Assembly: GCA_018660225.1 (NCBI GenBank)
Contig: JABJKT010000055.1
Span: forward strand, 641-64,640
Length of the DNA: 64,000 bases
DNA from: Kordiimonadaceae bacterium
GTDB taxonomy: Bacteria > Pseudomonadota > Alphaproteobacteria > Sphingomonadales > Emcibacteraceae
Reading direction: 5' to 3'
In this document: positions 3 to 51,662 of the stretch, in pieces
Layout of the letters: each line of letters begins with the position of its first letter
Numbering within the stretch: the first letter of the stretch is position 1
The notes under the pieces: model-generated
The model's database searches: none
Told to the model about the DNA's origin: nothing
What the model saw: only the letters and a program-made list of their open reading frames with translations
Made by a program: the position numbers and the translations under genes

Positions 3-149
3 ATCAGTGACCGGCCGCTCGGAAAAAACTGGTCAGATAAGAAACTTACAGTGGAAGAGTTGCATAAACCCTATCACGCGCCAGGAAACCGCAAAGGGGA
101 TATGTACTGGGTTTCTACGGATGTGATAGAAGTATTGAGGCCTAAATGA
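3..149 (+). CDS. 3' end of an unidentified ORF entering from upstream of the window (partial)
   Basis: Frame 3 is open from the window edge to TGA at 147-149 (...HKPYHAPGNRKGDMYWVSTDVIEVLRPK*). Its stop overlaps the next start in an ATGA junction. No family recognised. Confidence 0.4.
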   Translation: MSDRPLGKNWSDKKLTVEELHKPYHAPGNRKGDMYWVSTDVIEVLRPK

Positions 150-1051
150 GTAGGAAATTTATTATGAAAAAAATAGTTAAAGCAGCATTGCTATTGATGA
201 GTTTGACGGGTCATGCTTTTGCGCAAGACGTTCCGGTATATGAAGCTGAGCTACTAACAAAATATGATACATTCGATGCTATTCAGGCTGTGGCCGTGGA
301 TAAAGATCATTTTTATGCCATTAATGATTTTCGAATGACCAAGCATAGGAAATCTGATGGTGAGCCGGTTATGCAGTGGGACGGAGAAGAAAGAGGGAAG
401 GTTCTTTTTCATCTGGATAGCGCAATGGTTCTGGACGGAAAACTTTATGCGGCCCATTCCAATTACGCTAATTCGCCAATGACTAGTTCTATTGAGATTT
501 GGGACGTGGAGACTATGGAACATGTTGGGGCAGGCAGTTTTGGCATCAATAGAGGATCATTTACCTGGCTCGATTATTACATGGGTAGTTGGTGGGGTAC
601 TTTTGCCAATTATGACCGGGTTCAGGACGGGCACAGGGAGCCTTACGGTAAAACGGAAAACACAAAGGTGGTAAAATTAAGCGAAGAATTTGACATTCAA
701 CAATCATGGACCCTGCCAAAGCATTTGCTGGATAGAATGACGCCGATGAGCAATAGTGGTGGATCGTGGGGGCCGGACGGGTATCTTTATTTAACGGCCC
801 ATGATTACGGTGAAATTTATGTTATGCAGTTACCCAAAGCTGGTTCCGTTTTACATCATGCGGCGACAGTAAAAATTGAAGGTGCTCTTGAGGGGCAGGG
901 GATTGCCTTCGATCGTACACAAAAGGATAGTATACTTTGGGGTATAAATAATATTACCCGTGAGGTTTTTAAAATGAAAATGCCGAAAATTGAAAAGACG
1001 GTACCTTTTCAAGAAGGTATTATCAGAAGCAATAATTTTAATAAGAATTAG
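146..1051 (+). CDS. secreted hypothetical protein (possibly beta-propeller-like)
   Basis: 301-aa ORF with an N-terminal Sec signal (KKIVKAALLLMSLTGHAFA-QD). ATGA coupling to the upstream ORF. No family recognised with certainty. Confidence 0.6.
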   Translation: MSRKFIMKKIVKAALLLMSLTGHAFAQDVPVYEAELLTKYDTFDAIQAVAVDKDHFYAINDFRMTKHRKSDGEPVMQWDGEERGKVLFHLDSAMVLDGKLYAAHSNYANSPMTSSIEIWDVETMEHVGAGSFGINRGSFTWLDYYMGSWWGTFANYDRVQDGHREPYGKTENTKVVKLSEEFDIQQSWTLPKHLLDRMTPMSNSGGSWGPDGYLYLTAHDYGEIYVMQLPKAGSVLHHAATVKIEGALEGQGIAFDRTQKDSILWGINNITREVFKMKMPKIEKTVPFQEGIIRSNNFNKN

Positions 1052-6543: not shown

Positions 6544-7566
6544 ATGAAGATTTTCGCATTTTTAGTCCTTAGCATTTTTGCTACTCAATCACTTTTAGCA
6601 CAAAATATTATGCCATCAGCGGATAATGATGTGATGAAAATCACTTTTCTTGGCACTGGTGCGCCACGGCCATCGACCGAGCGCTATGGCCCGAGCATTT
6701 ATGTGGAAGCCGGAGATCATAAAATCCTTGTTGATGCGGGGCCGGGAATGCGTGAGCGGCTTTTTGAAGCGGGCGGGTTTGAGGCCATATCAGGGGTAGA
6801 TCATGTTCTGGTCACCCACCTTCATTTTGATCATACGGTTAGCATTTCAAGCGCGTGGCTAAGCGGATGGTTGTTTGGCCGCCGTGTACCGCTTCATATT
6901 CAGGGGCCAGTTGGTATCAAGGATATGATGGAGAACATCAAACGCGCCTACCAGTGGGATGTGGATTACCGGGTTATGGTCGGTGTGCCGATCGAAGGAA
7001 CCGAGCTTATTGTTGATGAAGTATCAGACGGGGTTATTTTTGATGAGGGCGGGCTTAAAATTACCGCCTTTCCAGTAGAACATATGCCGATAGATATGGC
7101 GAGCGGTGAGGTTCTCGGCCTGCGCGGTGAAACCATTGGATTTCGCATGGATTATAAGGGGCATTCGGTGCTGTTTTCCGGCGATACAAGATCAACTGAA
7201 CAATCAGAAATTAACAATGTCGGAAAAGATATTGATCTACTGATTCATGAAGTTCAGGTTCCATCCCCCGGCGCAACGCCCGAAGCAAATCTGGCCAATG
7301 TAAGCCTTTCCGTTCATTCAACTCCGCAGCAGGCAGGGCTCGTGTTCGAGGCTACAAAACCAAAAATGGCCGTATATTCCCACATCATCCCCCCCGGCAT
7401 CACCGCAGATGATCTAGAAGTAGCCACCCGCCCTTATTACAAAGGCCCGATGACGGTCGCCCATGATTTCATGGAAATAACGTTGAGCGGTGAAGATATT
7501 ATTATCGGCGAGCGCCTCAAGCAAAGCGACGGCAAGTTTGAGGATTCAAAGGTGCTGGGTAAGTAG
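6544..7566 (+). CDS. exported MBL-fold metallo-hydrolase
   Basis: Sec signal (SIFATQSLLAQN). FLGTG..., VTHLHFDH metallo-beta-lactamase motif, later GDT and HE motifs. Confidence 0.75.
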   Translation: MKIFAFLVLSIFATQSLLAQNIMPSADNDVMKITFLGTGAPRPSTERYGPSIYVEAGDHKILVDAGPGMRERLFEAGGFEAISGVDHVLVTHLHFDHTVSISSAWLSGWLFGRRVPLHIQGPVGIKDMMENIKRAYQWDVDYRVMVGVPIEGTELIVDEVSDGVIFDEGGLKITAFPVEHMPIDMASGEVLGLRGETIGFRMDYKGHSVLFSGDTRSTEQSEINNVGKDIDLLIHEVQVPSPGATPEANLANVSLSVHSTPQQAGLVFEATKPKMAVYSHIIPPGITADDLEVATRPYYKGPMTVAHDFMEITLSGEDIIIGERLKQSDGKFEDSKVLGK

Positions 7567-34119: not shown

Positions 34120-35352
34120 TTAAGCGACTTTTTTATCTTCTGAATTTTCTGAGTTAATAATGAGATCAAGTGCAGAGTTTAAATCAGCCATAATATCATC
34201 CGGTGTTTCAAGGCCTATTGAAATACGCATCAGGCTGTCTGAAATATCATGCTCTGCGCGTTCTTCGGGAGTATAGGTCGAATGGGTCATGCTTGCTGGG
34301 TGCTGAATGAGCGTATCCACATCGCCAAGGCTAACAGCGCGTTTAATCAGCTTTAGTTCATTCATGAAACGCATGCCAACACTAATACCGCCAACAAGTT
34401 CAAAGGCGATCATGCCGCCGGGTTTGCTCATTTGTCTTTTGGCAAGGCCGTGTTGTTCAAAGCTTTCAAGTCCCGGATAGAATACTTTCTCCACGGCAGG
34501 GTGCTGTTCTAGTTGTTCGGCGATCATTTGTGCACTACTGCAATGTCTGTCCATACGGATTTCAAGTGTTTTAAGGCCGCGCATGATTTGAAAAGCGGTC
34601 AGCGGTGCCATAACGGCCCCGGTCATATCCTTTACACCTTCAAGGCGGATGCGAGTAATTATATCGGCGGAACCGGCGACGATGCCAGCAACCAGATCAC
34701 CATGACCGCCAAGATACTTCGTTGCCGAATGGACAACGATATCTGCACCCAGATCAATAGGGCGGGTCAGGTAAGGCGTAGCATAGGTGTTATCAACGAC
34801 GGTGATCAGGCCATTTTCTTTGGCAATTTGGGCGATGGCACCAATTTCAACAAGCCTCATGTTCGGGTTGGCCGGTGTTTCAAAATAAACCACTTTGGTT
34901 TTATCAGTAATGGCAGATCTTAAGTTTTCTGGATCGCGCATATCCACATGCTTGACGGTAACGCCAAATTTGGTCAGACCATGTTGGAAGAATGTAAATG
35001 TGCAGCCATAGAGCGTTTTATCAACAATGATCTCATCACCCTGTGCAAGAATTGTCCATAGGGTCGAGGTGATAGCACCCATTCCCGATGCGGTGGCCAT
35101 GGCCGCTTCGGCGCCTTCAAGGCTGGCCATGCGAAGCTCAAGCAGACTTAGTGTGGGGTTTGATATGCGGCTGTAAAAATGGCCGTCTTCTTCACCGGCA
35201 AAGAGCGCTGCCCCTTGTTCGGCATTTTCAAAAGTAAAGGTTGATGTCATGTAAACTGGCGGTACGAGGGCGCCCTGTTCAGTTGCTGGGTCATACCCAT
35301 CATGGATGGCGCGGGTAGCGAAGCCTAGCTCGTTTTTATCATTATTTTTCAT
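34120..35352 (-). CDS. methionine gamma-lyase-like PLP enzyme (Cys/Met metabolism family)
   Basis: ATRAIHDGYDP, YSRISNPT, VDNTYATPY, HSATKYLGGHGD (PLP lysine), HPASMTH. Exact reaction not assignable. Confidence 0.85.
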   Translation of the reverse strand: MKNNDKNELGFATRAIHDGYDPATEQGALVPPVYMTSTFTFENAEQGAALFAGEEDGHFYSRISNPTLSLLELRMASLEGAEAAMATASGMGAITSTLWTILAQGDEIIVDKTLYGCTFTFFQHGLTKFGVTVKHVDMRDPENLRSAITDKTKVVYFETPANPNMRLVEIGAIAQIAKENGLITVVDNTYATPYLTRPIDLGADIVVHSATKYLGGHGDLVAGIVAGSADIITRIRLEGVKDMTGAVMAPLTAFQIMRGLKTLEIRMDRHCSSAQMIAEQLEQHPAVEKVFYPGLESFEQHGLAKRQMSKPGGMIAFELVGGISVGMRFMNELKLIKRAVSLGDVDTLIQHPASMTHSTYTPEERAEHDISDSLMRISIGLETPDDIMADLNSALDLIINSENSEDKKVA

Positions 35353-42518: not shown

Positions 42519-43019
42519 ATGAATATCAGATTTGAGGAGCAAAAAGACATAAACGCCGTTCGCGACGTCCATTTAGATGCCTTTGAAGGACCGGGTGAGG
42601 CTAAACTTGTCGATATGCTACGCGAAAAAGCATCGCCTATTGTGTCATTAGTGGCTAAAAATGAAGGTGAAGTTGTTGGTCATATTATGTTTTCTCCGGT
42701 GATGCTTGGGGATTATGATATTAAAATCATGGGGTTAGCGCCTGTCACGGTTTTAGAGAGTGAGCAAAATAAGGGCTACGGGGCGGCTCTTGTTAATGCT
42801 GGACTTGAAGAATGTAAGGCGCTTGGTTATCAGGGCGTGGTGCTGTTAGGCCATGCTGAGTATTATCCGCGCTTTGGATTTCGGACCTCAACCGAATATA
42901 GCATCACCTGTGAGTATGATGTGCCATCAGAATATTTTATGGCACTTGAGCTTGTTGAGGGGGCATTTGATGATGTTTCGGGAACAATTAAATATCATCC
43001 CGTGTTTGCTGAGCTTTAA
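42519..43019 (+). CDS. GNAT-family N-acetyltransferase (YhbS-like)
   Basis: QNKGYGAALVNAGL motif A. Typical 166-aa length. Confidence 0.8.
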   Translation: MNIRFEEQKDINAVRDVHLDAFEGPGEAKLVDMLREKASPIVSLVAKNEGEVVGHIMFSPVMLGDYDIKIMGLAPVTVLESEQNKGYGAALVNAGLEECKALGYQGVVLLGHAEYYPRFGFRTSTEYSITCEYDVPSEYFMALELVEGAFDDVSGTIKYHPVFAEL

Positions 43020-43690
43020 TGAGTAATAATATTATTCACTGGCAGGATGACGCAATACCGCGCTCTAGTCTATATGATGATATCTATTTTTCCACAGAAA
43101 ATGGCATAGAAGAAAGCAAAGCGGTCTTTCTTGACGGTATTGATGCGCCGGATGTCTGGCAGGGCTGTGATCAGTTCACTATTTGTGAGCTCGGCTTTGG
43201 CACAGGGCTTAATTTTCTAAATACAGTGAAGATGTGGATGGAAAACAGCACTATAAATCAACGCCTCATTTACTTTGCAACTGAACTTCATCCTCTCTCA
43301 AAGGTTGAAATTGATAGGGCGGTCCATTGGGACGAATTGGAGGGCCATAAAATTGATTTTTTAGAGCATTACCCGAAGCCTTCATTCACGTTATATGATG
43401 GTCGGGTATCATTTCAGTTGTTGTGTGGCGATTGCGCTGAAAGTTTGAAGGCTAGTAGTACAAAAATAGATGCCTGGTACATGGATGGCTTCGCACCAGC
43501 GAAAAATCCAGACATGTGGTCAGATGAAATTTTCACTCAGATGGCGCGGCTGTCAAATGAAGGGTCGAGGGTGGCGACTTTTACCTCGGCTGGATTCGTT
43601 AGGCGCGGATTATCGGCAGCAAATTTTCACATGACTAAAAGAAAAGGCTACTGTAAGAAGCGTGAAATGCTCAGTGGGGTGATAAGTTGA
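43019..43690 (+). CDS. mnmC: tRNA mnm5s2U34 methyltransferase domain only (MnmC N-terminal/MnmD-like, DUF752)
   Basis: ELGFGTGLNFL SAM motif, DAWYMDGFAPAKNPDMWS, and ending ...KKREMLSGV, as at the end of the methyltransferase domain of bifunctional MnmC. No FAD/DAO domain follows. Confidence 0.7.
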   Translation: MSNNIIHWQDDAIPRSSLYDDIYFSTENGIEESKAVFLDGIDAPDVWQGCDQFTICELGFGTGLNFLNTVKMWMENSTINQRLIYFATELHPLSKVEIDRAVHWDELEGHKIDFLEHYPKPSFTLYDGRVSFQLLCGDCAESLKASSTKIDAWYMDGFAPAKNPDMWSDEIFTQMARLSNEGSRVATFTSAGFVRRGLSAANFHMTKRKGYCKKREMLSGVIS

Positions 43691-43725
43691 GATTGATGTA
43701 TTGTTGCATAAATGTTACGGTTTAG

Positions 43726-43741
43726 TTAACGATATATTAAC
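43726..43741 (+). promoter_or_regulatory. perfect TTAA-N7-TTAAC (CtrA-box consensus), copy 1
   Basis: TTAAcgatataTTAAC read directly. Overlaps a TTAACA -35-like hexamer. Confidence 0.45.
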
Positions 43742-43766
43742 ATGTTGTATAAATGTGACATATAAT
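43737..43766 (+). promoter_or_regulatory. candidate sigma70-type promoter (TTAACA-18 nt-TATAAT) with no downstream ORF
   Basis: -35 TTAACA at 43737-43742, 18-nt spacer, perfect -10 TATAAT at 43761-43766. Confidence 0.35.
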
Positions 43767-43781
43767 TAATCAATTGTTAAC
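43766..43781 (+). promoter_or_regulatory. perfect TTAA-N7-TTAAC (CtrA-box consensus), copy 2
   Basis: TTAAtcaattgTTAAC read directly, 40 bp from copy 1. Abuts/overlaps the TATAAT hexamer. Confidence 0.45.
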
Positions 43782-44325
43782 TAGTTGCAAAAATATCACA
43801 ATTTTAAATATTTATTATATTTCAATAGTTTATATTGATAGATTAAACTATTACATAAAATATTTAACAGTAAACGGCATTGTAGGGCGTTTCAGCCAAT
43901 TATCTCTGATATTGTCCATGAGGGTGTTTATATGATCGCTACCTAGGTTTTTGTGAATAGTCGTTAAGTTATTACCCTCAGTAAATTGGGGCTGGTATTT
44001 TTGCAACATTAAATCCGTCTATTTAGCTTATATATCCTTACTAGTAAGCACTGCAGCTCGTCATTGCTTGAAATAATATTTTCAATTTCCAAGTAAGTGA
44101 TTTGAGAAGCGTTGTTTGGTAACGGAAGGTAAATGTTTTGAGAACGATTATCTGTGAAGAATGAATTTTTCTTAGATAATTAGGTTCTTTGGTGTCTATT
44201 GGAAAATCAAAGTATCTTTTAAACTATGAAGGAGTTTTTTAGATAAAACAATCAGCTTAATATTGACTATTTTATGTTTAAATCATCCGATGGTAATTTA
44301 TTTAAAACTCTTTTAGGTTGTAAAA

Positions 44326-44358
44326 TAAAAGCGGCCGACTTTTATAAATCGGCCGCTT
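44326..44358 (-). terminator. rho-independent terminator of the BNR/sortilin-like gene
   Basis: Minus strand reads GCGGCCGA-tttataaaag-TCGGCCGC followed by TTTTATTTTA. The hairpin (44331-44356) begins 42 nt after the stop at 44399. Confidence 0.75.
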
Positions 44359-44398
44359 CTGTATATTTGGTTTCGTGCGCTGTCAGGCAGCGATTGAG

Positions 44399-47300
44399 CT
44401 ACGGCGAAACAACATATCTTAGGTTATTTTCTTTCGCCCAACTCTCAATTGGCTCAATAAGGCTGGAATTTATCGCGCTCAGTTCCGCTTTACGGTCAGT
44501 CCACTGCACTTTTAGGTCTGCCAGGCGCTGTAGCGCCCCATTTGCCACCGGCGCGCCGGCACTATCCATCACATCAACCACATGTTTCACTTGAACTTCA
44601 AGCATGCTCGGCCATGCATCCTCATCTTCTAGGACTTGGAAATAAACTTGCGTGATTTGTTTTTCCCATTCGCCGATCTGATCAATAGCAGGGATAGCAC
44701 TGGCCATAAGCTGTTCATTATCACCATGATCAACCATTAATGATTTGATCTGGCTGCGTGCTGTTCTGGTATTGTCGAGGGTAGCAAGTATTTCATTGAG
44801 AAGCGATGTGCCTTCAACAACTTTACCTTCAAGAATGTTATATTCAGCAGCTGTTGCGCTATCACGGGGATCAGGAAGAAGCGAGAAAGGTACCGTTTCT
44901 TCGCTTTCACCTATGGAAATGCGGGCTTGATAATCACCCGGCATAACTTTGGCACCATTCCAGCCGGAGAATAAAAATACATCATCAATACACATGATGC
45001 CTTCGCGGCGCATATCCCAAGTCCAGAGGTTCATACCTTTTTTCTTGGCAGGATATGTTAATTTACGTTTTTGGCGTGGTGACATGTTGCCGATCACGCA
45101 GCGGTCATGGTCACCTTCTTCGCTTGAATAATGGCGTACGATATTGCCGATGTTATCAAGAATATCAATGGAAAGCGGGGCGTCATTTTCTTCTGCGATA
45201 TGATAGGAAAGCAAGACACCATTTGGCGGGTTTGCTCCTTCGTTTTTACCAGGTCCACGTCGGCCGGTGATCATCATGGTCGGGCTTGGGCTTATGGCGT
45301 GAAGTGGCTTATCTGCCTGATCATTTGAAATCTGGCTAAAGACCGCAATATCATCCAAGACATAAAAACCACGGCCCTGCGTTGCCACAACCAGGTCACC
45401 CTGACGGATCGTTAGGTCAGTGATCGGAACCGGCGGCAGGTTAAGCTTAAGGCTTTGCCAGTTTTCACCATCATCAAAGGAAATATACAAGCTGGATTCC
45501 GTCCCTGCGTAGAGAAGGCCTTGTTTTTCTTCATCTTCACGAACAACGCGGACGAAGTTATCTTGCGGCAGGTCACCATCAAGCCGTGACCAGCTATCAC
45601 CGTAGTTAGTTGTTTTATAGATATATGGCTTTATGTCGTTCATTTTATAAGCGGAAACAACAACATAGGCTGTAGCAGGATCATGAGGGCTTACCTCAAT
45701 AGCGTTGATCATACCTTCCGGGGCACCGCGCGGTGTGGCATTTGTCCAGGAGCCACCGTTATCACGTGTTACATATACAAGTCCATCATCACTTCCGGAC
45801 CAGATCACCCCTTTTTCATGGGGGCTTTCAACAATGGTATAGACGTTGCCGTAAAATTCGGCGCCTACATTTTCAGCCGTTAGCGGTCCACCGTTTAGAC
45901 GCTGCTTTTCTTTTTCATTGCGGGTAAGGTCCGGGCTAATTTCTTCCCAAGTTACCCCGCGGTCAGCACTACGAAGAATATACTGAGAGCCATAATATAT
46001 AATGCTCGGATCATGCGGTGATGAGGACACCGGCGCGTTCCAGTTGGCCCTGTATTTAAGATCTTCTGCGTTCATTCCGAAGACATATTGCGGGTATGGC
46101 TTAATGGGGCGCGTGCGTCTGTTTTCGGTGTCAATCTCTGTTAGTGTGCCGTTGATGGTTGTTGCATAAACCAGTTTAGGGTTATTTTCATCAAAGGCAA
46201 TATGAGCACTTTCGCCGCCACCAACAGAATAATAATCATCAACACCAATGCCGCGTGTGAAGGATTCTGATGTAATCGCAACCGTCGAATTATCCTGCTG
46301 TCCGCCGTAAATGCGGTATGGCATCATGTTATCGGTGTTGACACGGTAGAACTGTGCCGTTGGCTGGTTCATGATACTTGACCATGTTTTACCGCCGTCG
46401 AAGGTAATTTCCGCCCCGCCGTCATCGGCTAGGGCCATGTTAAGGCTATTATCGGGATTGATCCATAGATCATGGGTGTCGCCGTGCCCTACTTTAAGAA
46501 TTTCGTATGATTTGCCGCCGTCTATTGATTTCATGAAAGGAACATTCATAACATAAATAGTATTGTCATCGTTAGGATCGGCTTTAAGGTGATTATAATA
46601 CCATGCCCTTGTATGGGTTAGACGGTTTGAATTGATGTTAGTCCATGTTTTACCAGCATCTTCAGTGCGGTAAACGCCGCCATCGTCAGAATACATATCG
46701 CCTTCAACGACCGCGTAAATTCGGTTCGGGTTGGACGCTGAAACATCAAGCCCCACTTTACCGATCATTGTCGGCAGGCCACCTTCCAGTTTATTCCAAG
46801 TATCACCGCCATCAGCGGTTTTGTATATGCCGCCTTTGTCACCTCCGGATAGAATATACCATGGTGTGCGGCCATTTTCCCAAAGCGATGCATAAAGAAT
46901 GCGCGGGTTTGTCGGGTCCATGGCAAGGTCACCACCACCAGCGCGGTCAGATACTTTTAAAACATGTTGCCATGTTTGCCCGCCGTCTTGAGTGCGGTAA
47001 ATGCCGCGCTCTTCGGTTGGGCCCCAAATGTTACCCTGCACGGCTGCGTAGGCAATATCGGGATTGGTTGGATGAATTCTGATTTTGGGGATTTGACCCG
47101 CTGTTTTAAGACCAACATGTTGCCAGTTCTTCCCGGCATCGGTTGATTTATAAATGCCGTCACCGCTAGCCGTGGTCACGCCGCGGATTGGCCCTTCACC
47201 TGTACCTGCATAAAGGACGTTGGAGTCGGATTCTGATACGGCTATTGCGCCAATAGTACCGACGCCGAAATCCTTATCGGAAACATTTTCCCATGTTGTG

Positions 47301-47551
47301 CCAGCATTTGTGGTTTTCCATACACCGCCGCCTGCTGCGCCCATGTAATAAGTAAGCGGATCGTCTTTAACGCCGGTTACGGTGACCGCACGGCCCCCGC
47401 GCCACGGCCCGATTAGACGGTATTTCTTACCTTCAAATAGTGACGGATTAACGGTATCGGTAGCGCTTGCCACTGTGATAAATGATGTGTTTGGAAATGC
47501 TGCACCAAGCATTAAAATGGCGGCAATTTTAATTAAACGCAGTAAAGACAT
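44399..47551 (-). CDS. secreted BNR/Asp-box repeat, sortilin (VPS10)-like double beta-propeller protein (GH74-like 'glycosyl hydrolase')
   Basis: Sec signal (FITVASATD). Many SxDxGxTW Asp-box repeats (TNAGTTWENV, STDAGKNWQHV, TQDGGQTWQHV, TADGGDTWNKL, TEDAGKTWTNI, SIDGGKSY, TFDGGKTWSSI, SADRGVTWEEI, TRDNGGSWTNA, TTNYGDSWSRL, SFDDGENWQSL). Confidence 0.8.
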   Translation of the reverse strand: MSLLRLIKIAAILMLGAAFPNTSFITVASATDTVNPSLFEGKKYRLIGPWRGGRAVTVTGVKDDPLTYYMGAAGGGVWKTTNAGTTWENVSDKDFGVGTIGAIAVSESDSNVLYAGTGEGPIRGVTTASGDGIYKSTDAGKNWQHVGLKTAGQIPKIRIHPTNPDIAYAAVQGNIWGPTEERGIYRTQDGGQTWQHVLKVSDRAGGGDLAMDPTNPRILYASLWENGRTPWYILSGGDKGGIYKTADGGDTWNKLEGGLPTMIGKVGLDVSASNPNRIYAVVEGDMYSDDGGVYRTEDAGKTWTNINSNRLTHTRAWYYNHLKADPNDDNTIYVMNVPFMKSIDGGKSYEILKVGHGDTHDLWINPDNSLNMALADDGGAEITFDGGKTWSSIMNQPTAQFYRVNTDNMMPYRIYGGQQDNSTVAITSESFTRGIGVDDYYSVGGGESAHIAFDENNPKLVYATTINGTLTEIDTENRRTRPIKPYPQYVFGMNAEDLKYRANWNAPVSSSPHDPSIIYYGSQYILRSADRGVTWEEISPDLTRNEKEKQRLNGGPLTAENVGAEFYGNVYTIVESPHEKGVIWSGSDDGLVYVTRDNGGSWTNATPRGAPEGMINAIEVSPHDPATAYVVVSAYKMNDIKPYIYKTTNYGDSWSRLDGDLPQDNFVRVVREDEEKQGLLYAGTESSLYISFDDGENWQSLKLNLPPVPITDLTIRQGDLVVATQGRGFYVLDDIAVFSQISNDQADKPLHAISPSPTMMITGRRGPGKNEGANPPNGVLLSYHIAEENDAPLSIDILDNIGNIVRHYSSEEGDHDRCVIGNMSPRQKRKLTYPAKKKGMNLWTWDMRREGIMCIDDVFLFSGWNGAKVMPGDYQARISIGESEETVPFSLLPDPRDSATAAEYNILEGKVVEGTSLLNEILATLDNTRTARSQIKSLMVDHGDNEQLMASAIPAIDQIGEWEKQITQVYFQVLEDEDAWPSMLEVQVKHVVDVMDSAGAPVANGALQRLADLKVQWTDRKAELSAINSSLIEPIESWAKENNLRYVVSP

Positions 47552-50383: not shown

Positions 50384-50476
50384 TCATTGGCTAACTTATT
50401 ATATCCAAAACATATTACAGGTTCGATGGTAGACAAACATATCAGCTTTGTAAAACGTTCAATTTTAATGACAGGC

Positions 50477-50512
50477 ATAAAAAAAGCCCCGCAGTTTCCT
50501 GAGGAGCTTTTT
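50477..50512 (-). terminator. rho-independent terminator after the molybdoenzyme operon and small ORF
   Basis: Minus strand reads AAAGCTCC-tcaggaaactgc-GGGGCTTT (8 bp with one G-U pair) followed by TTTTTTTAT. Confidence 0.65.
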
Positions 50513-50531
50513 CATATTAAGTGGGTTACCG

Positions 50532-50675
50532 TTATTTCTTGGTCACCATGCTATAAACAAGGTGGCAGATAATGAACAGGGCGGTGGCGCCTGCGAATAC
50601 GGGGATTAAGTCCCATGATATGCCTTGTAGCGTTTCTTGCCCGTACATGTCTCTGGTATAACGGAATATTTCCAT
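50532..50675 (-). CDS. unannotated 47-aa single-TM small protein (below the ORF-track cutoff)
   Basis: ATG at 50675 lies 3 nt (50676-50678) after the FAD-subunit stop, with an AGAGGA SD 6 nt upstream. Sequence: MEIFRYTRDMYGQETLQGISWDLIPVFAGATALFIICHLVYSMVTKK. Followed by the terminator. Confidence 0.5.
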   Translation of the reverse strand: MEIFRYTRDMYGQETLQGISWDLIPVFAGATALFIICHLVYSMVTKK

Positions 50676-50678
50676 GAC

Positions 50679-51662
50679 TTATCCTCTGATCGCTCTTTTA
50701 ACAAGATTTTCCATCAGTGGAATTTTGAAATGGTTATAGTTTAGTGGTGCTGCACCGCGCGCTGCGGCACCGGCAGCTAAAGTGGCCGTATCTTCGTTAC
50801 GTTCACTACCGCGAACAATGTCTTCGACAACATTAAGACGCTTAGGTACACATTCAACGGCACCGCAGGTAATGCGAATGTCTTCGATTGTGCTGCCGTT
50901 TAACTTAATAGCAGACGCAATATTAACCAGTGGGAAATCCCATGTATTACGGTCAGCGACTTTTTCAAAATAGAAGGTCGCATTAGCCCATGCTGCAGGA
51001 ATACGGATCGCCGTTAGAATATCACCGGGTTTAAGGACGGTCATATTTTCAATGTCGATATCCGGTCCAACAAAATAATCGGCAGCAGCAACAACCTGCT
51101 CACCAGATGCATTTTGAATAACCATACTGGCATCAAGTGTTACAAGCGCAACCGCCGTATCAGAAGGCGTCACTGCAACACAGCGTGAAGCAGCAAACAG
51201 GCAATGTTCCCTGTTCATACCTTCCGGTGTGTCGGCGTAACATGTGTTACCACCAGCGCGGTAACAATCGAGACCACTTCGGTAATACCAACAACGGGCG
51301 TCCTGGCTAATATTGCCGCCAAGCGTTCCCTTGTTTCTGATTTGCGGGCTGGCCACGCGACCAGCTGCCGTGGAAAGAAGGCCATATTTTTCTTTAATAA
51401 TGGCATTATTTTCAACGTCAGTCAGTGTTGTCATAGCACCGATCTCAACGCCGTCGGCAGTTTCACGGATCCCGCTTAGCGAAGCAATGCCGCTAAGATC
51501 CACAACTGTCGTCGGTCGTTTAATTCTATCCTTGAACCAGTCAAGGCTGTCTTGTCCGCCTGCCATTGCCCAACCGTTTTCTCCGGCGTCAGCAAGCATG
51601 CTTACTGCACTAGCAACATCGGTGGGTTGTAACAGATTAAAGTTTGGCATCATATCTTTCAT
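50679..51662 (-). CDS. xanthine dehydrogenase-family FAD-binding subunit (CoxM/PaoB-like)
   Basis: FAD_binding_5 pattern AGGQDSLDW..., GTLGGNISQ, and a C-terminal CO-dehydrogenase flavoprotein domain. Confidence 0.85.
   Translation of the reverse strand: MKDMMPNFNLLQPTDVASAVSMLADAGENGWAMAGGQDSLDWFKDRIKRPTTVVDLSGIASLSGIRETADGVEIGAMTTLTDVENNAIIKEKYGLLSTAAGRVASPQIRNKGTLGGNISQDARCWYYRSGLDCYRAGGNTCYADTPEGMNREHCLFAASRCVAVTPSDTAVALVTLDASMVIQNASGEQVVAAADYFVGPDIDIENMTVLKPGDILTAIRIPAAWANATFYFEKVADRNTWDFPLVNIASAIKLNGSTIEDIRITCGAVECVPKRLNVVEDIVRGSERNEDTATLAAGAAARGAAPLNYNHFKIPLMENLVKRAIRG

Follow-up and report, generated by a model that had tools for sequence, protein, structure and literature searches.

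A conserved array of operator-like and CtrA-type boxes in a long, AT-rich gap between convergent genes of a Kordiimonadaceae bacterium

What occupies, and what maintains, the 708 bp of AT-rich DNA that separate two convergent housekeeping genes in an uncultured marine alphaproteobacterium? The gap (positions 43691-44398) lies between mnmD and a Sortilin/BNR gene in the window, by which we mean the whole 64,000-nucleotide stretch analysed here (contig JABJKT010000055.1 of the Kordiimonadaceae bacterium assembly GCA_018660225.1). Roughly its first 120 bp are a box array, in which three operator-like units are interleaved with two TTAA-N7-TTAAC boxes of the type recognized by the regulator CtrA. 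An earlier, sequence-only reading had offered three interpretations of the gap: a regulated non-coding RNA locus, a protein-binding array, or the decayed remnant of acquired DNA. The second is the best supported, as the motifs are non-random and selected. Judged by sequence comparison, the array is a real, selected and composite cis-element, and we tentatively propose, with somewhat less than even confidence, that it controls an unannotated rightward promoter as a composite of operator and CtrA boxes. The array comprises the following features.

43702-43719, plus strand: operator-like box of unit 1, the 16-mer GTTGCATAAATGTTAC (43703-43718) plus one flanking base on each side.
43726-43741, plus strand: CtrA-type box 1, TTAACGATATATTAAC, whose 3' half, TTAAC(A), is also the -35 hexamer TTAACA (43737-43742).
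43743-43760, plus strand: operator-like box of unit 2, TGTTGTATAAATGTGACA, exactly equal to the 18-bp promoter spacer.
43761-43766, plus strand: -10-like hexamer TATAAT, with a predicted start at about 43773.
43766-43781, plus strand: CtrA-type box 2, TTAATCAATTGTTAAC, overlapping the -10 and +1.
43783-43800, plus strand: operator-like box of unit 3, with the 16-mer GTTGCAAAAATATCAC at 43784-43799.
43804-43819, plus strand: degenerate third box, TTAA-N7-TTATA, read from the sequence and not conserved in relatives.

The units begin at 43703, 43744 and 43784, exactly where three ~40-bp tandem repeats had been reported, and each is a zero-mismatch match to GTTGYAWAAATRTNAC, phased at 40/41 bp. 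The 64-kb window has no further exact copy of this pattern; at 43992-44007 it occurs inverted, with 2 mismatches. Tandem Repeats Finder reported nothing for the gap because the ~40-bp units are too degenerate beyond their conserved 16-mer. In the window the box takes the form of a 16-18-bp quasi-palindrome, T-GTTGYA-W4-TRNNAC-A, present in three copies at a 40-41-bp phase.

Is the array maintained? Five lineages with a long gap were compared (the window, L346, L010/L011, L012 and L013/L014), their MnmD proteins being 68-78% identical to the window's. Diverged as they are, all five keep the gene order GNAT-mnmD-gap-BNR and a gap of 550-723 bp. Between lineages, the two flanking genes agree at only 32-57% of their four-fold degenerate sites, a level near saturation, and the array (43702-43806) is 70-87% identical in most 30-column windows; being better conserved than synonymous sites, it has the signature of a selected cis-element. 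Within the units, GTTGC and AC of unit 1 are invariant across the five lineages and the AATGTGACA portion of unit 2 is conserved. Beyond a mid-gap that evolves at about the neutral rate, the segment before the terminal hairpin and the hairpin itself are conserved again. The units always lie on the mnmD strand, and they are absent elsewhere in the 101 loci scanned and in the window. Comparison with related genomes had been suggested as a check for synteny and conservation, and gene order, gap length and array all prove to be retained; to judge from these alignments, the repeats and the CtrA-type boxes are kept by selection in five diverged lineages.

The CtrA-type boxes can also be compared with chance. 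Boxes 1 and 2 are the sole TTAA-N7-TTAA sites in the 64-kb window. When the gap itself was shuffled 5000 times with its dinucleotides preserved and strand matches were counted, at least two matches appeared in 0.6% of the shuffles and the observed count of 3 was never reached; shuffles of the 160-bp array alone gave a chance figure of 0.16%. The two perfect boxes noted in the sequence-only reading, for which it had itself suggested a shuffling control, are therefore rare in such controls rather than typical of them. Across the five lineages 8 of 10 boxes are perfect: box 1 is a perfect TTAA-N7-TTAAC in four of five, with a variable N7, and box 2 is likewise perfect in four of five, with an invariant junction, TTAAC(C/T)AGTTG, to the following unit. 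Half-site positions deviate from the column majority in 3 of 90 cases, as compared to 17 of 70 for the N7 spacers (Fisher p = 7e-5, a value to be read with the lineages being related and not independent samples). Conserved half-sites with drifting spacers are the pattern expected of a transcription-factor site under selection, which we take these boxes to be. The third box is indeed present at 43804-43819 as reported, but its lack of conservation in relatives suggests that it is probably non-functional.

Would the host use such boxes? CtrA occurs in most Alphaproteobacteria, together with a TTAA-N7-TTAA motif (PMC2877005; PMC9437464). The nearest named MnmD homologs, among the matches listed, belong to Kordiimonadaceae and Emcibacteraceae; they point firmly to an alphaproteobacterial, Kordiimonadaceae-like genome, which makes CtrA plausible here. 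A gammaproteobacterial origin, at first suggested by the GC content, was rejected on these homologs. A literature search on CtrA in Kordiimonadales found nothing. As a candidate member of a CtrA regulon, the locus has a motif beyond chance expectation and conserved half-sites, and CtrA binding to it is predicted.

What might the array control? A promoter-like TTAACA-18-TATAAT at 43737-43766 is an 11/12 sigma-70-like match. Unit 2 coincides exactly with its 18-bp spacer and is followed by a -10-like hexamer in four of the five lineages (the window, L346, L012 and L013). In the mechanism we propose, a dimeric DNA-binding protein would occupy the three 18-bp boxes, and its presence on unit 2, inside the 18-bp spacer, would place it in the classic position of a repressor. 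Phosphorylated CtrA (CtrA~P), if encoded by this genome, would bind the TTAAC pairs: box 1, at -47 to -32, has the geometry of CtrA activation, and box 2 extends over -7 to +9, so that CtrA bound there would block the promoter. Transcription from the -35 TTAACA and -10 TATAAT would begin near 43773 and proceed rightward, yielding a transcript of ~585 nt that traverses AT-rich, fast-evolving non-coding DNA up to a shared hairpin at 44329-44358. The geometry of the boxes, the fixed orientation of the units, a phage parallel described below, the retained gap length and the taxonomy are all consistent with this proposal.

The DNA through which this transcript would run contains the following features.

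43820-44240, no strand assigned: AT-rich, fast-evolving mid-gap, holding the 52-codon open reading frame (ORF), the 53-codon ORF and the inverted unit-like copy at 43992-44007.
43851-44009, minus strand: 52-codon ORF, non-conserved.
43774-43935, plus strand: 53-codon ORF.
44241-44296, minus strand: conserved island (44241-44276) plus a promoter-like TTACCA-16-TAAAAT (44296..44269), a 9/12 match and weak evidence.
44297-44328, no strand assigned: conserved segment directly before the hairpin, TTAAAACTCTTTTAGGTTGTAAAATAAA.
44329-44358, minus strand: GC-rich terminator hairpin, AAGCGGCCGACTT/AAATCGGCCGCTT, with its U-tract on the minus strand.

Identity in the mid-gap is 18-57% per 30-column window and falls mostly at 30-50%, roughly what neutral evolution would give in AT-rich DNA. 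The island at 44241-44276 is 63-70% identical among the window, L010 and L012, and a motif related to the pre-hairpin segment, CTTTGTAnnGGT, precedes the hairpin in the more distant L015 and L095. That the length of 550-723 bp is kept despite neutral drift suggests that the length, composition or transcription of the tract matters. We also noted that TATATTTCAAT at 43815-43826 resembles the first 11 nt of the Agrobacterium 'Ros box', and that TTCAATAG is partly conserved in relatives; AT-rich DNA such as this gap would be a natural target for MucR/Ros-type proteins.

One alternative is that the gap encodes a small protein, either the 52-aa minus-strand or the 53-aa plus-strand ORF, possibly as a convergent pair resembling a type I toxin-antitoxin system. 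Both frames are present, promoter-like sites face each other across the tract (43737-43766 on the plus strand and 44296-44269 on the minus strand), and a gene caller predicted a 52-aa gene in the gap on metagenome contig L006. However, substitutions in the 52-codon ORF have no codon periodicity (0.51/0.53/0.51), in contrast to a control at the end of the BNR gene (0.4-0.5 vs 0-0.2); the ORF measures 52, 39, 63 and 37 codons in different lineages, and L010 carries ATA in place of the window's start codon; the gap ORFs have no Pfam match; and at 31% GC a 700-bp stretch can be expected to contain an open frame of ~50 codons by chance. We regard a small-protein gene as scarcely credible, and the frame that had been put forward as the only coding candidate is not a conserved gene. 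A peptide encoded by the repeats themselves was also rejected, as units 1 and 2 stand in different reading frames. At the start of the 52-codon ORF lies an inverted copy of the unit region (43992-44020 on the minus strand, against 43690-43713), whose 24-nt arms are 79% complementary; no relative has it, and it is probably a chance occurrence or a recent event.

Nor does the gap resemble a structured RNA. Every Rfam match up to E = 10 lay far under the gathering threshold of its family, the array folded no better than shuffled sequence on either strand (z = +0.37, -0.40), and alifold on the aligned relatives gave little covariation, supporting only the terminator hairpin. A structured small RNA (sRNA) or member of a known RNA family was rejected on these three results, and the proposed non-coding RNA locus, for which Rfam and covariation analyses had been recommended, yielded no conserved transcript body, Rfam family or fold. 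The hairpin itself is well supported, its pairing being kept in six lineages with two compensatory changes. Because its U-tract is on the minus strand, it is primarily the terminator of the BNR gene, although it may act in both directions. The earlier suggestion that a GC-rich hairpin, then placed at 44331-44356, ends a rightward transcript thus holds as to the hairpin, which is real and conserved, but the U-tract favours the opposite strand.

The lack of any intrinsic terminator between mnmD and this shared hairpin bears on another account, in which the units would function in the RNA, being repeated linear motifs or weak hairpins within a long mnmD 3' untranslated region that extends to 44329-44358 and binds a protein or an sRNA. 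The units are always on the mnmD strand and directly follow its stop codon, and each can form, as read from the sequence and on the plus strand only, a short hairpin that contains G-U pairs. The folding energies and the scant covariation given above speak against this account, as does the occurrence of the same motif in phages as a DNA palindrome upstream of genes, and we consider it highly improbable.

How old are the two kinds of box? Lineages further from the window (MnmD 58-67%) have shorter gaps, of 188 bp in L015, 197 bp in L095, 75 bp in L098 and 154 bp in L100, and each of these carries one or two units right after mnmD, on the same strand and 30-40 bp apart, without TTAAC pairs. Unit 3 of the window aligns to the last unit of L098 and L100. 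A neighbour-joining tree of MnmD unites the long-gap lineages in one monophyletic clade, beyond which the distribution of the units is patchy. Since units occur without CtrA-type boxes in these short-gap relatives (75-197 bp), the units are the older element; the window's clade alone has added the CtrA-type boxes and the ~500-bp AT-rich tract. In L098 (6769-7692) and L100 (6848-7780) a Lactamase_B-family gene lies between mnmD and the BNR gene, and two units fill the 75-154-bp gap between convergent genes, which has no hairpin terminator. In the shortest gap, the 54 bp of L097, from which the units are absent, a hairpin at 6658-6690 (AGCCGACT-ATGA-AGTCGGCT) spans the mnmD stop codon.

The unit motif is not confined to this bacterial family. 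A scan of viral and metagenome contigs for pairs of units separated by 10-30 bp gave at least 240 loci (L102-L341). As the host units supplied the search pattern, the match in the core is circular, and independent evidence comes only from the extra positions and from the habit of forming arrays. Among the matches listed, the full phage site, seen in 710 distinct instances, is an 18-bp quasi-palindrome, T-GTTGYA-W4-TRYMAC-A, in which the three positions left free by the pattern are mostly R-Y-M and the flanking bases are T and A; arrays contain 2-6 copies, with spacing peaks at 32 and 40 bp. In a tabulation by eye of the host units in the aligned lineages, position 12 is R in all cases and position 0 is T in most, and several host right halves (ATCAC, GTCAC, GCAAC, GACAC) are common phage ones. 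The window units thereby fall within this phage-type 18-bp box family, a family defined in this analysis from the host-derived pattern. No -10 stands at a fixed distance from the 710 phage and metagenome instances or from the 257 last-in-array units among those matches, which is why the 18-bp box looks like an operator or protein-binding site and not like a promoter itself, and why we rejected the idea that the 16-mer is a sigma-70 -35 or a complete promoter. Sigma-70-like promoters often lie 25-50 nt beyond the phage arrays. No description of the 18-bp box was found in the literature searched.

The phage arrays have a preferred setting. Among the matches listed, they lie in large intergenic regions (median 540-660 bp), 31% of them at contig edges; the commonest neighbour is the terminase large subunit (50-58 of ~240 loci), and terminase is transcribed away from the array in 50 of 51 cases. 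A recurrent array-bearing family consists of relatives of Pelagibacter phage HTVC010P (L342). HTVC010P, the only complete genome among those scanned, has a single cluster at 34690-34765, ~130 bp from the end of the record, with an ocr-like early gene downstream of it and the terminase genes on its other side. Next downstream of the HTVC010P-type array comes a gene for an Ocr-like DNA-mimic anti-restriction protein (PF08684, phrog_2568), which corresponds to gp64 of HTVC010P (34223-34636, hypothetical in the record) and to 978-1307 of L104. At the start of the HTVC010P record, between the array and gp01, there is also an unannotated ORF of ~94 codons (3-290, plus strand). Other array-bearing contigs are related to HTVC023P, Roseobacter phage CRP-901 and Caulobacter phages, and one has a Ralstonia-phage-like terminase; near the terminase genes of HTVC023P and Ralstonia phage DU_RP_II no arrays were found.

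In one respect the phage parallel is closer still. The layout unit / TTAA-N7-TTAA / unit at a 40-bp period recurs in viral contigs only within the HTVC010P family, in 19 contigs (L104, L130, L158, L188, L192, L193, L217, L220 and L350-L360), and was for this reason rejected as a general phage feature. The element between the units is there a palindrome, TTAAAC-N3-GTTTAA (at ~34712-34726 in L342), with conserved arms and a varying centre, and the window boxes fit the extended CtrA consensus TTAAC better than this palindrome does. Pelagibacter, the host of HTVC010P, is without a ctrA ortholog (PMC2877005), so the phage element is not a CtrA site.

These comparisons bring in two further explanations. 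In the first, the array serves as a binding platform at the level of DNA and plays no part in a promoter. It would be a roadblock or insulator between convergent units, or else the chromosomal copy of a phage site, used in packaging (pac/cosB-like) or early control and recognized by a phage or host protein. The short-gap relatives favour it for the ancestral function: the units of L098 and L100 fill a hairpin-less convergent gap, and lineages without units have hairpins. The phage arrays point the same way, lying as they do in large intergenic regions by the terminase operon and in 31% of cases at contig edges, with the HTVC010P cluster near the record end between its early operon and its terminase genes. 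On the other side, the array-bearing phages among the matches listed share no single small DNA-binding protein near the array, some of their relatives have no arrays, and the conserved TTAAC pairs and promoter-like geometry of the long-gap clade are left unexplained. We consider such a platform unlikely.

The second explanation is that the gap is a decaying remnant of acquired, phage-derived DNA and that the array and the AT-rich tract have no function today. The middle ~450 bp are AT-rich and evolve at a roughly neutral rate, the unit motif is of a phage type, the units have been lost in four lineages, and the long gap, found in one clade only, looks like an insertion or expansion. Yet the array is far better conserved than synonymous sites, its half-sites are conserved and its spacers variable, its position and orientation are fixed across family-level divergence, blastn found no matching phage or plasmid DNA, and the gap has neither conserved terminal repeats nor mobile-element genes. 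A functionless remnant is improbable, and the description of the gap as decayed acquired DNA fits the ~450-bp middle but not the array.

How does the proposal of a CtrA-controlled promoter with a repressor operator stand beside these? Several observations weigh against it. An 11/12 promoter match arises in ~6% of shuffled gaps, which makes it marginal and weak if taken alone, and the -10 is poor in lineage L010; of the orphan promoter that the sequence-only reading had described, the geometry stands (the 3' half of box 1 as the -35 and box 2 over the -10/+1), while the hexamers carry this chance probability of ~0.06 and are imperfectly kept. No gene or structured RNA is conserved downstream of the promoter. 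Within the window, tblastn with the Caulobacter CtrA protein as query gave no match. The units are absent from L097, L347, L348 and L349 (gaps of 54-88 bp), most of which have a hairpin instead, and units missing from four related lineages must be dispensable. In L098 and L100 the units run up against the 3' end of the convergent gene, where an independent transcription unit could not be accommodated; their older function may therefore have been something other than promoter control. Finally, by analogy with the HTVC010P family, a TTAA-N7-TTAA element beside the units need not mean CtrA. We nevertheless retain a control region of an unannotated rightward promoter as our tentative interpretation.

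The phage data permit a broader and doubtful conjecture, namely that the 18-bp box is the site of an undescribed DNA-binding protein that hundreds of marine phages, the very abundant HTVC010P-type pelagiphages among them, use at the junction of their early and packaging regions, and that a chromosomal copy has been combined with CtrA boxes in marine Alphaproteobacteria. The chromosomal copy could be a host switch that phages have copied, or it could imitate a phage control or packaging site and thereby sense infection or interfere with it. If the promoter proposal is correct, the gap would link CtrA to a second DNA-binding factor at one regulatory locus of an uncultured marine alphaproteobacterium with a global distribution, and the site of that second factor also marks the control region of some of the most abundant phages in the ocean; it would offer, as testable objects, an orphan regulated transcript between housekeeping genes, a box binder, and a factor shared by pelagiphage and host. 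Interest in the locus would rise further if the factor that we infer to bind the boxes linked host regulation with pelagiphage control regions. If the proposal is wrong, what is left is still a clean non-coding element under purifying selection, beside ~450 bp of neutrally drifting AT-rich DNA.

The gap is bounded by two genes.

43019-43690, plus strand: mnmD, a stand-alone 223-aa MnmD methyltransferase (PF05430), with its TGA at 43688-43690.
44399-47551, minus strand: Sortilin/BNR gene (1050 aa), with its stop at 44399, convergent with mnmD.

The first of these had been called an mnmC-like gene ending at 43690; the stop is placed correctly, and the identity is that of a stand-alone MnmD. The stop of the BNR gene at 44399 is as had been stated. 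GC content is 31% over the whole 708-bp gap and 0.23-0.33 along it, as compared to ~45% in the flanks, and a recount gives 6 G/C in the 60 nt at 43801-43860, in agreement with the AT-richness originally described. The MnmD protein recurs residue for residue on 14 public contigs, including one of the metagenome-assembled genome GCA_018699055.1. In all nine readable contigs (L001-L009) the gap is 100% identical to the window's over the aligned stretch; for window positions 43631-44458, which are mostly non-coding, eight contigs from NCBI, ENA, JGI and Logan are 100% identical over 828 bp, and L007, which stops 22 bases short, is 100% identical over 806 bp. This uniformity points to a very clonal and widely distributed population carrying the locus. 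Elsewhere in the region, a called gene of 47-48 aa without a Pfam match lies directly 5' of the FAD_binding_5 subunit gene of a xanthine-dehydrogenase-like cluster; it was seen in every lineage that shows the region (window ~50390-50680; L001 17514-17657; L010 12576-12722).

Several other kinds of element were considered and set aside. A replication origin, terminus or dif site was rejected: the plus-strand skew at third codon positions (GC3 skew) is positive on either side of the gap, with genes on both strands, and does not switch there, an apparent plateau in the cumulative skew being due to gene orientation; the flanking genes converge, and relatives with gaps of 54-88 bp lack the element. 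No convincing DnaA box or dif-like site was found on reading the gap sequence. An iteron-type plasmid or phage origin was dismissed for want of a rep gene and on account of the conserved housekeeping genes at its flanks; blastn of the gap returned no phage match, and its plasmid matches were only AT-rich chance ones. A transposon end (Tn7- or Mu-like) or a miniature inverted-repeat transposable element was rejected because no relative conserves the inverted copy at 43992-44020 and because every lineage has its units as direct repeats; no terminal repeats are conserved among the relatives. A CRISPR-like or type III toxin-antitoxin array does not fit either, as no toxin gene is present and the array combines degenerate units with conserved 'spacers'.

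Which known systems does the locus resemble? It shares TTAA-N7-TTAAC boxes with the CtrA promoters of Caulobacter and other Alphaproteobacteria (class II flagellar promoters, ccrM, pilA, and Ps in Cori, which is flanked by CtrA sites), and, as in these, one box lies on the -35 and one on the -10/+1, the DNA is AT-rich, the host is alphaproteobacterial, and the half-sites are conserved around a variable spacer. Unlike them, it has no annotated target gene, and its boxes are interleaved with a second, unrelated type of box; unlike Cori, it is no origin, to judge from the GC3 skew, the convergent genes and the short gaps of close relatives. Large intergenic regions rich in CtrA boxes have also been described in alphaproteobacterial phages, where they are associated with 'lytic deferment' and are thought to tie transcription to the cell-cycle state of the host (Mascolo et al. 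2022, PMC9437464). The window locus resembles these regions in its long AT-rich intergenic DNA and clustered TTAA-N7-TTAA sites, and has a phage link of its own through the unit motif, whereas the phage regions hold about a dozen sites between divergent genes and the window locus is chromosomal, has two boxes and lies between convergent housekeeping genes. In contrast to those phages, the pelagiphages whose arrays share the unit motif infect a host without ctrA.

The units themselves recall another class of elements. Phage and plasmid regulators have operator arrays, and lambda has cosB-type arrays of R sites 5' of its terminase genes. Like these, the box family places 2-6 copies of a quasi-palindrome of 16-18 bp in one intergenic region of each genome, at a spacing of 16-46 bp, and its phage copies are mostly upstream of terminase or early operons, as in cosB arrays; unlike them, the motif is common to phages with different terminase families, and the chromosomal copy has no phage genes nearby. 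The extended 18-mer shares the formula TGT-N12-ACA with the Ogr/Delta sites of P2/P4, and P2 also shares the GTTGT half-site, located 5' of late (terminase) operons. However, the annotated P2 sites (PO/PP, PV and PF) have GTTGT and CAAC ~13 nt apart around a GC-rich centre, as compared to 6 nt and a W4 centre in the window box, and these differences in half-site spacing and centre composition led us to reject an Ogr/Delta-type site; nor did an Ogr-type protein come to light. PpsR/CrtJ operators follow the same TGT-N12-ACA formula, but PpsR is a protein of phototrophs, found at photosynthesis promoters. In its left half, GTTGCAT(T/A), the unit resembles the CytR octamer, GTTGCATT, and perfectly palindromic phage variants would then be two such octamers inverted back to back. 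CytR is a gammaproteobacterial LacI-family protein; no LacI-family CytR-like gene is linked to the locus, and the likeness serves as a lead only. Taken by analogy with all of these systems, the locus would work most like a CtrA-controlled promoter combined with a repressor operator.

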